Below, in pieces: positions 3,153 through 46,790 of a stretch of 64,000 nt of DNA. The stretch is from Dictyostelium discoideum (lineage: Eukaryota). The notes under the pieces are model-generated. The model was given only the letters and a program-made list of their open reading frames with translations, did no database searches and was not told the origin of the DNA. The stretch is taken from contig CM000150.2 in NCBI GenBank assembly GCA_000004695.1, positions 896,001 to 960,000 of the forward strand, in the 5' to 3' direction. The translations under genes were made by a program, and so were the position numbers. Numbering within the stretch: the first letter of the stretch is position 1; every line of letters begins with the position of its first letter.

Positions 3153-6100
3153 ATGAATAATAATAATAATCAAAATAATAACCAAAATAATAACCAAAAT
3201 AATATTATCCATAATAATAATCATAATTTAATTTCAAATATTAGCCAAAATAGTATTAGCCATAATAATAATAATAATAATAACCATAATATAAATAGTA
3301 ATCAAAATAATCAAAATATTAATAATATAATAGGTAATAATAATAATAATAATAGTTTAAATTCAAATAATATTCCAAGTAATTTAAGCATTATAAGTAA
3401 TAATAATAATAATAATAATAATAATAATAATAATCAAAATAATCAAAATAATCAAAATAATAGTAATAATCAAAATAATAATAATAATCAAAATAATAAT
3501 AATAATAATTTAAATTCAAATAAAGGTCAACCAATTGTAAATAATAATGGACAAATTTTATATGAATGTGATTGCCATTTATGTCAACGTGGTCCGCCAT
3601 TATTAACGGTCAAATTCTATAAGACTGGATTATGGAAGAGAAAGTTAGAGATTTGTTTATGGGTGGTATTAATGAGACAACTTAAAGAGGAATCAATTAA
3701 TGAAATTGAAACAGGAACCTATGATGAAACAACCGATGTAATCAACGTTAACAATGTCAATGGAAATAATATTATAACCACGCCAATCGGTCAGAATAGT
3801 GAATATAAATATAAGGAGATGAAGAATTTCGTTCACACCAGTGTGATCGCCGAATTTGTAGAGACACATCATCATCTCCTCGAATTGACATCCCAAATTG
3901 AAGGCGAAGAAGAATGGAGACACTCTGTAATCAAAGCATTATCAAATCATAAAGATACCTTTAAATCCGGTTTACATTCCCCATTTGGTAAGAGAGGATT
4001 TTGGTCATTACAAGAACACCATTTAAGTGATCCTTGGGATGATTCCGATAATAGTGATGATGAAGAGGATCAAAATAACAACAACAATAGTAATTTAAAT
4101 TTAAACGATGGTGGTAGTAATGGTAATAGTGAAGAAAAAGAAAAGAAACAACCAGTTCCACACCATCCAGTTAGAACTCCAATCAATAGGTCAACCCATA
4201 GATGTGGTGTAGTTGACAAACTTAATGGAAATAAACCTTGTCATCGTATTGGTTTTTGTAGAGATCATTATACAATCACTTTAAAGAAATTAAAAGTCCC
4301 AAAAAAAAGTAAAAAAATTAAAATTGTAAATCATTATAATAGTAGTTTAAATAATAATAATAGTAACAGTATGAATAATAATAATAATAATAACAATAAT
4401 ATGAATAATAATAATAATAATAACATGAATAATAATAATAATAATAATAATATGAATAACAATAGTAATAGTAATAATAACAATAATAACAACAATAATA
4501 ATAATATGAATAATATGAATAATAATAGTCCAAACAACCTTTTTAGTAATAATATGGTCGCCACTAATTATGGTTATAATAATAACAATAATAATAATAA
4601 TAATAATAACAATAACAATAATAATAATAATAATAATAATAATAATAATAGTAATAATAATAACTATAATAATAGTAATAATAGTAATAATAATAATAAT
4701 AATAGTAATAATTATAATAATAGTAATAATGGTAATAAATATCTTAATGGTAGTGGCGGTGGCGGTGGAAGTTGCGGAGGTAGTGTCTATAATAATAGTA
4801 GTGACGAGTATGATGATTATGAGGAAGAGTATGACGAAGTTGAAGAGATTAATTCCGATCATGAAAGTAATATGTCCATGAGTGCCAGTTCTAATAATGG
4901 AAATGGGGCAGGAATGGATAGTAGTTTTAATATAAAGAGATCTTCCTCATCTTCATTGTCAACATCACCATTACCATTAAGTAGTCCATCACTTCCATTT
5001 AGTGGAAAAAGAAATTATTTATCTCAACTTGTACAACCAAATCCTGCATCATCATCATCATCATCATCATCATCATCATCATCATCATCATCATCATCAT
5101 CATCATCATCATCATCATCATCATCATCATCATCATCATCATCATCAAATTCCTCTTCTTCTTCTTCTTCTTCTTCCTCAACCAACCTTTCATCATCACC
5201 ATCCTCTTCAACTACAATCCCAACTTTATCACCACCAAATAATAATAATAATAATAATAATAATAATAATAACAATAATAATAACAACAATAATAGCAAT
5301 ATTACCACAACTACAATCTCATCAACTTCATCATGTTCATCATCAGCGATTTCATCATCAATTTCGTCACCAATTACACCATCATCAGCGATTTCATCTT
5401 CATCAATATCCTCATCATCATCATCTCCATCTTCTTCATCTTCATCATTTCATACTCAACCACAGCCATTCCAAATTAAAACACAACAACACCCATTCCA
5501 ATTACAACATCATAATAATAATAATAATAATCAACAACAACAACAACAACAACAACAACAACAACAACAACAACAACAACAACACTACCAATCATCTTCA
5601 CATCATATTAATAATCATCATAATAATTTCCATCAACATCAAAGCTATAGTATTCAACCACTTAGAACTTCATTACAAGTAATAAATGGTAATTTTAATA
5701 ATATCTCTGATTTTGAAAAAGATATCTTACAAAACTTCAATTTCTATTCAATTATCAATCATTTAGATAGTCAAAAGAATGCATGTTTGGATTTATATAA
5801 ATTGAGTAGAGAATATGTTAGATTCATTATTTTAAAAATAATAGATTCCGATACAAATAATCATGAATCTGGTTCTGGATATAATGTTAAATTATTACCA
5901 AGTCCATTAATTGATGTAAGTTGTTATTTATTAGTATTATTTTATTTTTAGTATTAATTATCTAATTACTTTTTTTACTAATATTATTACTATTTATTAT
6001 TATTATTATTTTCATTATTTTAGTTATTTTGGAGAACTCATATATTATTTACAAGCTCATATAGACAATTTTTACAATTAATTGATGTCAAGATTGGTTA

Positions 6101-6230
6101 TGAGCCAAATTCTGATTCTCAAGAAGATCGAAAACAAAAGTATGAAAGAACACTCGACTTGTATAAGTCTCATTTTCCACCAATTCAACCAAAATCAATA
6201 GAAAGAGAAATTTGGGCATTGGAATTGTAA
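3153..6230 (+). CDS. Paralog family member 1. Low-complexity (poly-N/S/Q) protein of about 989 aa. Two exons, approximately 3153..5915 and 6024..6230.
   Basis: Long ORF 3153..5951. Conserved blocks: ILYECDCHLCQRGPP, FKSGLHSPFGKRGFWSL, knuckle HRCGVVDKLNGNKPCHRIGFCRDH, C-terminal FEKDILQNFNFY...LYKLSREYVRFIILKII. Donor GAT|GTAAGT near 5916 and acceptor tttag|TTATTTTGG near 6023 join to ...LFWRTH...KYERTLDLYKSHF...EIWALEL, matching the terminal exon of the paralogs. Confidence 0.6.
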
Positions 6231-44508: not shown

Positions 44509-44973
44509 TTTGGTTTTTTTTTTTTTTATTAAAATCTATTTTTTATATAAAATTTATTCCTTACTTGTTGTTCTTCAAAATAACAAAAAATCCAAAAATG
44601 GATGATAAATAATTAAATTCCAAAAAGAATTATTTCATTTTTTTTTTTTTTTTTTTTTTTTTTTTATATTTTATACCATTTTATGTATTTTTGAGTGTTT
44701 TATTTTTTTATAATAAATCCATATTAACAATAAACAAAATTAAATAATTGTTTTTTTAAAAAAAAAAAAGGAAATGAAAATTTTCATGAATAAATAAATT
44801 AAAAAAAAAATGAAAATATTTTTTTTTTTTAACTCCCATACCAAAAAAAAAAAAAAAGAAAGTATTTTTTTTTTTTTTTTTTTTTTTTTGAACAAAACAC
44901 CAAATAAATATATAAAAATTATTTAAATTTTTTTTTTAATTTTTTTTAAAGAAAAAAAAAAAACTTCAATTAA

Positions 44974-46790
44974 ATGGATGAACATATTATAAGATTATAT
45001 GATATTAATGGTAAAGAAGCAATTCAAATTAATGGTAGATGGTTAGATGTTTTAGGATATTCAGAATTAGCAACACAAGCAGATTCATTAGGTATACCAC
45101 AAGCATTAACACATTGTCCAAAGATACAGATCTATAATAAAGTTTTATCATTAGTTAAAGAAACAAGGGAAGAAAGTGAAGTACCAGTTGATTTAATACC
45201 ATGTGATTGTTTAATTTGTTTAAAAGGATTACCCAAATCATTTAAATCGGGTGATAGTGGCAGTACAATTCAAATTTGGCAAGAACGTTTAAAGATTATA
45301 ATGTTTGTAGTCTGTCACCAACAAGAAAAACATGGTAAAGAATTGGAGAAAGAATTACAAGACCGTGGTTTTAAAAAGAATTCAAGTATTAAAAAAATAT
45401 TGGGTTCAAAGAAATCCTATATACATATAAACGAGATCACCTATTTCCTTGATACTCATTCCTCCATATTAAAAGTAAATTTAGAAGAATCTTGGAAATC
45501 CGCTTTAGTTAATGGTAAAGATTTCATCTCTGGTTTCGATAAATTTAATATCAAAGGTTATTGGACACTTGCAAATTTAGAGGATCCTTTTTCACCAACT
45601 TATAATTTCGTCTCAAATTCATCTGCAATTTTACCAATTAAAAATAATAATAATAATATTAATAATATAAATAATAGTAATAGTAATAGTGATAATAATA
45701 ATGATAAAAGTAATAATGATAAAAGTAATAATAATAATAATAATAATAATAATAATAATAATTATAGTATGGTTGTTTATAATAATAGTAATGATAATAT
45801 TGATAATAATAATAATGATAATAATAATGATAACAATTTAAATTATAATGATCTTAATAATTCACCAACTAAAAAAACATGTGGGGGTATTACAAAGACA
45901 GGGAAACCATGTGCAAAAATTGGATTTTGTAGTTTTCACATGATAAGAAAGTTAGATGGTACTTTTGAAATTCCACCATCAATAAATAATAATAATAATA
46001 ATAATAATAATAATAATAATAATAATAATAATAATAATAATAATAATAATAATAATAATAATAATAATAATAATAAATTAAATATTAATTCTGAAAATAA
46101 TAAAAATAATAGCGATGAAGATACTGATACTGATAGTGGTAGTGATGAATATGAAAGTGTTGAAAATGAAAAAAATAGAAAAAGGAAAAGAATTAGTTGG
46201 AATGGTAGTAGTCCTAATAATAATAAAACTCAAAATTATATTTCACAAACAACATTTAAAGTTAGAGAACTCGAAAAAAGAATTTTAGATAATTTTAATT
46301 TTTATAGATTCATTCTTAAATTTGAACAATATGGGTAATTAATTATAATTTATAGATTATTTATTATTTATTATTATATAAATAATTTATTAAAAAATTT
46401 TTTTTTTTTTTTTTTTTTTTTTTTTTTTTTTTTTAATACAATATTAAAAACTTTAGATATCGTTTACCACGTGAATTTGTTAGATTCATTGCATTAAAAG
46501 TAATTTGTGATGAAACTGGTGAAAATCATGAATCAACAATTTTACAACCTCCGAAATTGATTGAAGAATTTTGGATTCAAATCATTTTAACAAGTTTGGA
46601 ATATAATAGATTATTAAAGATTATAAATGTTGAAAAGATAAGATATGATCCAGATCTTTTATTAGACGAACCTCCAATTCAGAGAAAACGATATGAAAAA
46701 ACCCTCCAATTGTATAAAAAGTATTTTAGATTTGATAAATTTGATTCAGAAATTTGGAAAGAAAACTATCTTTTAGAAAGTAATGATTAG
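44974..46790 (+). CDS. Paralog family member 6, about 564 aa. Two exons, approximately 44974..46334 and 46457..46790.
   Basis: IRLYDINGKEAIQINGRWLDV, CDCLICLKGLP, FISGFDKFNIKGYWTL, knuckle KKTCGGITKTGKPCAKIGFCSFH, ELEKRILDNFNFYRFILKFEQYG|. Intron GG|GTAATT...ctttag|A joins to YRLPREFVRFIALKVI...RYEKTLQLYKKYF...EIWKENYLLESND. Confidence 0.6.

Follow-up and report, generated by a model that had tools for sequence, protein, structure and literature searches.

The winged helix (WH) in the EH region of the Polycomb-like (PCL) proteins uses its W1 loop to bind unmethylated CpG DNA (PMC10606531, reviewing Li et al. 2017). In ASH2L the WH is a DNA-binding motif that lies beside nucleosomal DNA in the MLL1-WRAD complex (PMC9499523, citing Chen 2011 and Sarvan 2011), and the SCA7 domain has been described as a nucleosome-binding zinc finger (PMC8080568). 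Here we describe a group of genes from Dictyostelium discoideum that combine a domain homologous to the first two of these with, in some members, a short motif that may resemble the third. The genes lie in a window of 64,000 nucleotides (contig CM000150.2 of assembly GCA_000004695.1, positions 896,001 to 960,000, forward strand; approximately 20% G+C). This is the whole stretch that was analysed, and coordinates below refer to it unless another contig is named. An earlier note, made from the letters of this DNA, had listed six unrecognised genes sharing five co-linear blocks. They are labelled g1 to g6 in window order, and g7 is a seventh gene that we have added. We think it probable that their products are nuclear regulators of the genus Dictyostelium which bind DNA or chromatin and in which a known DNA-binding fold is set in a new architecture.

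A knuckle and winged helix shared by six paralogs

All six open reading frames (ORFs) were found where the earlier note had placed them: g1 at 3153-6230 (+), g2 at 9813-12316 (-), g3 at 18771-22553 (-), g4 at 28216-29787 (-), g5 at 30752-33405 (+) and g6 at 44974-46790 (+). One or two short GTA...AG introns must be spliced from four of them (g1, g2, g5 and g6) to reach the stop codons at the ends of these intervals.

The six genes are true paralogs. In BLASTP comparisons with SEG masking, the C-terminal modules of g1, g2, g5 and g6 connect at 48 to 88 bits and the N-terminal regions connect pairwise at 30 to 48 bits, which joins the whole set transitively. Since hidden Markov models (HMMs) trained on all members would be circular, leave-one-out tests were run. 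With trimmed N-terminal segments and the filters switched off, the left-out genes scored 29 to 71 bits while none of 500 composition-matched shuffles exceeded 9.5; for the C-terminal module, the corresponding E-values were 1e-10 to 1e-21. The bias filter of HMMER had initially concealed four of the six genes because their ORFs are full of poly-N/Q/S. Invariant across the six paralogs are C77, C79, C82, H162, F184, G187 and L199 (g6 numbering). Inter-copy protein identity is 24 to 38%, and at the DNA level the likeness among the copies is confined to low-complexity (poly-Ser, poly-Asn) tracts.

Blocks 2 and 3 are a single domain in which a CxCxxC knuckle is fused to a WH. It lies at 3567-4040 (+) in g1 (residues 139-296, knuckle CDCHLC), 11717-12076 (-) in g2, 21855-22187 (-) in g3, 29083-29580 (-) in g4, 31019-31429 (+) in g5 and 45202-45591 (+) in g6. 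Pfam scans of the six proteins, including full-length scans, gave no match at E<=1, and Pfam and PDB searches with two profiles (A1, A2) were empty as well. To this extent the earlier statement that no named domain fits is correct, but blocks 2 and 3 do resolve to a described domain family, PF21198 and the PCL EH winged helix, by profile-profile and transitive searches.

The search that led to this used an N-terminal profile of the family (A4) in an exhaustive HMMER run against 1.84 billion representative proteins. It returned 109 matches at E<1e-3, the six best of which belong to the family and come from strains of D. discoideum, from D. purpureum and from D. citrinum. The other matches cover mainly profile positions approximately 148-221 and often 67-120 as well. 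The Pfam family PF21198 (ASH2L-like WH) is found in 75 of these 103 non-family proteins, over the identical residues, and no other Pfam family recurs among them. A clean alignment of 26 non-family cores served as an outgroup profile (A6). When the two profiles were aligned with hhalign they matched with a probability of 99.6% and an E-value of 1.3e-24 over 110 columns, from the CxCxxC knuckle through a DPW tail. Among PDB chains, the outgroup profile finds the PHD2 plus EH/WH unit of Polycomb-like proteins (MTF2, 5xfr, E 2.5e-10; PHF1, 5xfq, E 5e-10; Pcl, 5oqd, E 3e-9) and the PHD-WH of ASH2L (3s32, E 4e-6). Its reach to the forkhead protein FOXM1 (E 3.5e-3, other forkheads being weaker) is far behind these. 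Forkhead (FOX) membership was also considered and rejected: PF00250 has no match in the window proteins and matches weakly in 2 of the 103 relatives.

In a common-frame alignment the matched elements are C-x2-C, G-P, the Trp of helix 1, the YF strand, the recognition helix, F-x-SG, the basic wing and G(Y/F)W-x-L. The window paralogs retain the wing scaffold F-x-x-G...G(Y/F)W-x-L, and their invariant CxCxxC aligns with the final C-x2-C of the PCL PHD2. These profile comparisons establish homology between the WH core and both the PHD2-EH/WH of Polycomb-like proteins and the PHD-WH of ASH2L. The window proteins have diverged too far for Pfam, which is why the earlier note and all database annotation called them unknown.

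A structural model agrees with this assignment. The AlphaFold2 model of g6 residues 1-212 has a predicted local distance difference test (pLDDT) score of 67 overall and of approximately 75 to 83 over the WH. It has helices at 98-130, 152-161 and 174-179 followed by strands at 184-186 and 196-199, so that the WH region is predicted, with moderate model confidence, to adopt a winged-helix fold (helices and then a beta-hairpin wing). Foldseek places PHF1/MTF2-DNA complexes first (probability 0.98) and FOXN1 and FOXO1 next. The invariant His (H162 in g6) is a possible fourth ligand beside the three knuckle Cys, and together these residues may staple the N-terminal strand to the WH via one zinc.

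Recognition helix and wing together carry a net charge of +1 to +6 in all six paralogs, compared with +3 and +6 in PCL proteins, and remain net positive in the Dictyostelium orthologues. Given the known DNA binding of the PCL and ASH2L domains and this retained positive charge, DNA binding is the most economical inference: by analogy, the knuckle and WH would bind DNA through the basic recognition helix and the W1 wing. The earlier note had suggested nucleic-acid binding from the Cys/His motifs. The suggestion is plausible, but the likelier DNA binder is the WH. Basic clusters resembling nuclear localisation signals occur in g1, g4, g5 and g6.

The remaining modules and the layout of the cluster

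Block 4 is a second knuckle, present, in agreement with the earlier note, in four members: g1 (CGVVDKLNGNKPCHRIGFCRDH, residues 351-372, 4203-4268, +), g4 (28840-28899, -), g5 (31754-31816, +) and g6 (45880-45939, +). Its spacing is C-G-x8-11-C-x5-6-C-x2-H, and the members from D. purpureum and D. citrinum carry it at the same position. In the PDB it comes closest to the SCA7 domains of Ataxin-7 (2kkr, E 0.16) and Sgf73 (6tb4, E 0.31), and the Pfam SCA7 model (PF08313) matches three of eight knuckles at E 0.024-0.04 (the best with 14 bits, for a cutoff of 23). Short Cys motifs match easily, and SCA7 cores were therefore scored against random peptides of the same skeleton. When two SCA7 cores were compared with the knuckle HMM, a single random peptide out of 5000 built on the identical C/C/C/H skeleton reached either score (p~2e-4). 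The resemblance of block 4 to the SCA7 zinc knuckle of Ataxin-7/Sgf73 is thus suggestive. A zf-C3Hc3H or TRM13-type identity, which was also considered, never surfaced; SCA7 and zf-primase were the sole recurring weak matches.

Block 5, the C-terminal module, had been listed among the shared blocks. It is present in g1 (residues 853-989, 5709-6227, +, interrupted by the intron), g2 (9816-10408, -), g5 (32798-33402, +) and g6 (46267-46787, +) but not in g3 or g4, for which no hidden C-terminal exon was found within the window. The earlier note had also overlooked g7 (7471-9468, +; 665 aa in a single exon between g1 and g2), which carries the module uninterrupted in the middle of the protein (residues 178-309, 8002-8397; E 1.2e-6 with a profile built without g7). 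This gene has no knuckle and WH and none of blocks 1 to 4. Further downstream it has a Tudor-like region (residues 546-646, 9106-9408), which matches DUF4537 at E 1.1e-5 (25.9 bits, cutoff 27) and, as its best PDB match, the Tudor domain of the lamin-B receptor (E 0.13). The D. purpureum and D. citrinum loci that were fetched showed no orthologue of g7.

The alignment of the module, including Dictyostelium orthologues and g7, spans approximately 135 residues with invariant E, R, F, I and W positions. Its structure was modelled on the g6 orthologue from another strain (P0001; 3 of 148 positions are not as in g6). The model is all-alpha with eight helices (pLDDT 87, predicted template modelling score 0.83). 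There is no Pfam or PDB sequence match; the exhaustive protein search was confined to the N-terminal profile. DUF1399/GRDP (PF07173), another lead, was rejected, since none of nine module sequences matches it at E<=5, and a metagenome scan yielded 600 pattern matches of which none was confirmed. The cyclin-box fold (TFIIB core, cyclin C/T, Rb pocket, ORC6) is a candidate lead. No Cys, His or acidic catalytic residue is conserved in the module, and the lack of such a cluster makes an enzymatic role unlikely; our guess is a protein-protein interaction or dimerisation domain. It is, on the strength of the model, a confidently predicted orphan helical domain without a recognisable relative. We also observed that an out-of-frame stretch of the g2 last exon and its 3' flank (9764-9886, -; FQIAKEIIRFGILKILKS) matches part of the module HMM ('YKLSKEYVRFIILK', E 0.002), most likely by chance.

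Block 1, also listed among the shared blocks, occurs in five of the six genes: g2 (12218-12298, -), g3 (22473-22532, -), g4 (29731-29784, -), g5 (30770-30832, +) and g6 (44989-45051, +). The N-terminus of g1 is poly-N and lacks it; this protein (989 aa; exons 3153-5915 and 6024-6230, intron 5916-6023) carries the knuckle and WH, the SCA7-like knuckle and the C-terminal module. The product of g2 has 770 aa encoded in three exons (12316-10382, 10283-10219 and 10125-9813, with introns at 10284-10381 and 10126-10218) and is without the SCA7-like knuckle. The single-exon genes are g3 (1260 aa), which lacks both the SCA7-like knuckle and the C-terminal module, and g4 (523 aa), which lacks the latter. 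All the modules are found in g5 (827 aa; exons 30752-32892 and 33063-33405, intron 32893-33062) and in g6 (564 aa; exons 44974-46334 and 46457-46790, intron 46335-46456), the most compact and most complete member of the family.

Between the copies lie unrelated housekeeping genes (cyclophilin, a Miro-like GTPase, a flavoprotein reductase, and TSR3-like, DUF4419 and RRG7-like genes), so that the family forms a loose cluster rather than a strict tandem array. An ORF at 13280-14089 (+) encodes a protein of 269 aa with a Cys/His-rich N-terminus (CTFEGCKRKCLMFCKNKNRKTCTCTHSLSYH) followed by a long poly-N tract, and has no Pfam match. On the 3' side the region is anchored by genes for coronin (47374-48711, -; domains DUF1899, WD40 and WD40_4) and a phage-type mitochondrial RNA polymerase (54030-56882, -; RNA_pol, E 1e-170), with a tRNA-Ser gene predicted by ARAGORN (anticodon TGA; 50092-50173, +) between them.

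Orthologues and age of the family

The taxonomic range of the architecture was judged from 111 proteins retrieved with the N-terminal profile. Among these, the block 4 knuckle and block 5 were found only in the genus Dictyostelium, to which the full architecture therefore appears to be restricted. Proteins from other D. discoideum assemblies, annotated as 'hypothetical proteins', are nearly identical to g6 (P0001) and g4 (P0002). An exact-sequence look-up with the six gene models gave no entry in the collection searched, the proteins of other strains differing by a few residues. In D. purpureum, a contig of 21.7 kb (L001, GL871411.1) has three members side by side, and two members were found at a D. 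citrinum locus. The cluster is syntenic in both species. The domains are conserved and the linkers divergent, whether the comparison is with other strains (P0001, P0002) or with D. purpureum and D. citrinum.

Reciprocal best matches pair g6 with D. purpureum P0005, and g3 with the third gene of the D. purpureum contig. A unique middle region of g3 that is not of low complexity (20500-20820, -; residues approximately 583-688, GPTVWSTDLSS...FRQIIRDRS; no Pfam match) is 49% identical to that of its D. purpureum orthologue (L001, 20276-20593) and so represents an additional conserved domain that is peculiar to the g3 orthogroup. The best matches of g1, g2 and g5 are also cross-species and not within the window. 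The cross-species orthology and the synteny in D. purpureum and D. citrinum indicate that the duplications predate the split of these species. The earlier idea of a lineage-specific tandem expansion is thus retained as a restriction to the genus but not as a recent event: the one-to-one D. purpureum orthologues of g3 and g6, together with the synteny of the cluster, show the expansion to be old.

One D. purpureum protein, P0003 (GL871411.1, 9989-12586), has two full units of knuckle, WH and SCA7-like knuckle in tandem followed by one C-terminal module, and its nearest relative is the adjoining gene at 14099-16243. This arrangement suggests that a recent local gene duplication took place in D. 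purpureum, along with a duplication of domains within the protein.

Possible role and comparison with known systems

The genes g1 to g6, with g7, constitute a genuine, conserved and clustered family. If its members are DNA- or chromatin-binding regulators, as we propose, the proteins would be built from four modules with poly-N/Q/S linkers between them. The first (block 1) would be an N-terminal beta-hairpin or helical element. The second, the knuckle and WH, would contact DNA as the Polycomb-like and ASH2L domains do, while the third, the SCA7-like knuckle (in four of the six), may contact nucleosomes or another protein. The fourth, the C-terminal module, could couple the WH proteins mutually and to the Tudor-like g7.

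Several observations weigh against this proposal. Neither PF21198 nor a PDB chain is matched directly by any of the six proteins, the link being transitive and profile-based. The N-terminal model of g6 is moderately confident and its Foldseek E-values are above 0.1. E-values for the SCA7 likeness are 0.02 to 0.3, and zf-primase matches equally many knuckles (three of eight). The wings of g2 and g6 are weakly basic (+1 and +2). In addition, we found no literature on a described Dictyostelium family of these genes.

The low wing charge in g2 and g6, and the ambiguity between SCA7 and zf-primase, would also suit the idea that the WH has lost DNA binding and that the proteins act as protein-protein scaffolds or as RNA-binding factors, with the WH and knuckles as interaction surfaces. 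WH folds often mediate protein contacts, and several positions that hardly vary in the outgroup, such as the HW motif, the LSH motif and the Trp at the start of the recognition helix, have degenerated among the window paralogs. We nevertheless judge this unlikely. Helix and wing are net positive in all six paralogs and in the Dictyostelium orthologues, the F-x-x-G...G(Y/F)W-x-L scaffold of the wing is conserved, and the nearest solved relatives have all been crystallised on DNA or are DNA-binding (PMC10606531, PMC9499523).

A more elaborate form of our proposal, which we regard as rather doubtful, would make the cluster a Dictyostelium-specific chromatin-targeting system in which several DNA readers, each with a PCL/ASH2L-type WH and an SCA7-type nucleosome knuckle, pair via block 5 among themselves and with g7, a gene within the cluster, as a Tudor-like reader of histone marks. 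The DNA of D. discoideum is approximately 78% A+T, so that recognition of CpG islands is unlikely as the conserved specificity. To our knowledge, D. discoideum has no PRC2 and hardly any CpG islands. The PCL-type WH would then have been re-purposed for other, probably AT-rich, DNA targets, and the C-terminal module would be a new protein-interaction fold.

That the genes are diverged orthologues or co-orthologues of ASH2 or of Polycomb-like, working inside COMPASS or PRC2.1, respectively, is suggested by the homology of the WH core to precisely the WH of those proteins. We consider it very improbable. Scans of the full-length proteins detect no SPRY, the defining domain of ASH2 (nor any other Pfam domain), and none of the Tudor, PHD and chromo-like domains that define PCL. 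In place of the full PHD finger of PCL and ASH2L, a knuckle of three Cys precedes the WH. The nearest relatives are not ASH2 or PCL but amoebozoan proteins in which a knuckle and WH stand alone, and the copies, at least six in number, have a C-terminus that is unrelated.

That the copies face both ways and have unrelated genes between them might also suggest a mobile-element or viral origin, with scattering by transposition. This is scarcely credible, given that there is no inter-copy DNA repeat beyond the low-complexity tracts, that the copies are so divergent in protein sequence (24-38% identity), and that synteny and one-to-one orthology extend across Dictyostelium species; neither the genes nor their neighbours encode a transposase or integrase domain, and no terminal repeats, target-site duplications or single-copy presence/absence polymorphism between strains were seen. 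Finally, the ORFs are dominated by huge poly-N/Q/S tracts and the HMMER bias filter suppressed even true matches, but an artefact of low-complexity, AT-rich coding bias among unrelated or decaying genes is refuted by the leave-one-out test (scores free of low complexity exceed the composition-matched shuffles by 20-60 bits) and the alignment of the two profiles, and runs against the invariant Cys, His, Gly and Trp positions, the intact orthologues in other strains and species and the fact that every ORF is open and splices cleanly, so that its probability is practically nil.

On the regulator reading, seven 'hypothetical' D. discoideum genes, and with them a broader set of hypothetical proteins from Amoebozoa, become candidate DNA- or chromatin-binding regulators that can be tested. 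Dictyostelid transcription-factor repertoires are poorly annotated, and a conserved, clustered family is a reasonable place to seek developmental regulators. The helical domain of approximately 135 residues, confidently folded in the model and without detectable relatives, merits experimental attention. The finding is a useful annotation advance and not a categorically new system.

With the SCA7 domain of Ataxin-7 and Sgf73, the block 4 knuckle shares the C/C/C/H spacing and non-ligand residues (CGV.D...KPC.R...C..H). The likeness is limited to a zinc core of approximately 22 residues, the flanking helices of the 68-residue SCA7 model being unmatched, and the window proteins have no further feature of the SAGA deubiquitinase (DUB) module.

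The Polycomb-like proteins (PHF1/PCL1, MTF2/PCL2 and Drosophila Pcl; PDB 5xfp, 5xfq, 5xfr and 5oqd) share the co-linear elements from C-x2-C to the basic W1 wing and the net-basic helix and wing, and are both the top PDB profile match of the outgroup and the top structural match of the g6 model. They differ in having PHD1 and a full PHD2, of which three upstream Cys remain in the window proteins, besides the Tudor and chromo-like domains, and in the KKKK loop of the wing, where the window wing ends in G(Y/F)W-x-L...DPW. ASH2L, whose PHD-WH is termed 'forkhead-like' (PDB 3rsn and 3s32; PF21198 and PF21257), supplies the Pfam family that recognises 75 of the 103 nearest relatives. Its SPRY and SDI/DPY30-binding regions are absent from the window proteins, which are multi-copy and have a different C-terminus.

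The immediate sequence relatives are the stand-alone amoebozoan proteins with a Cys knuckle and WH, such as F0ZMK7 and F0ZWG2 of D. purpureum and C4M0E9 of Entamoeba histolytica. This family (P0006-P0109) ranges over Entamoeba, Acytostelium, Synstelium, Ceratiomyxa, Clastostelium, Dictyostelium and environmental eukaryote contigs, with the consensus C-x-x-C-x-x-G-x-P...PTW...YF-LK-D(I/V)Y-F...HW..L...W-KQIQD-LSH...F-SG...G(Y/F)W-L...DPW, and all the named members that were checked are annotated as hypothetical. Its proteins have the same knuckle and WH unit, including the DPW tail, without block 1, the SCA7-like knuckle or the C-terminal module, and their WH (motifs HW and WHKQIQD-LSH) is far better conserved than that of the window paralogs. 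Together with the Dictyostelium cluster, they show that in Amoebozoa the PCL/ASH2L-type winged helix also occurs by itself and within novel multi-domain architectures.

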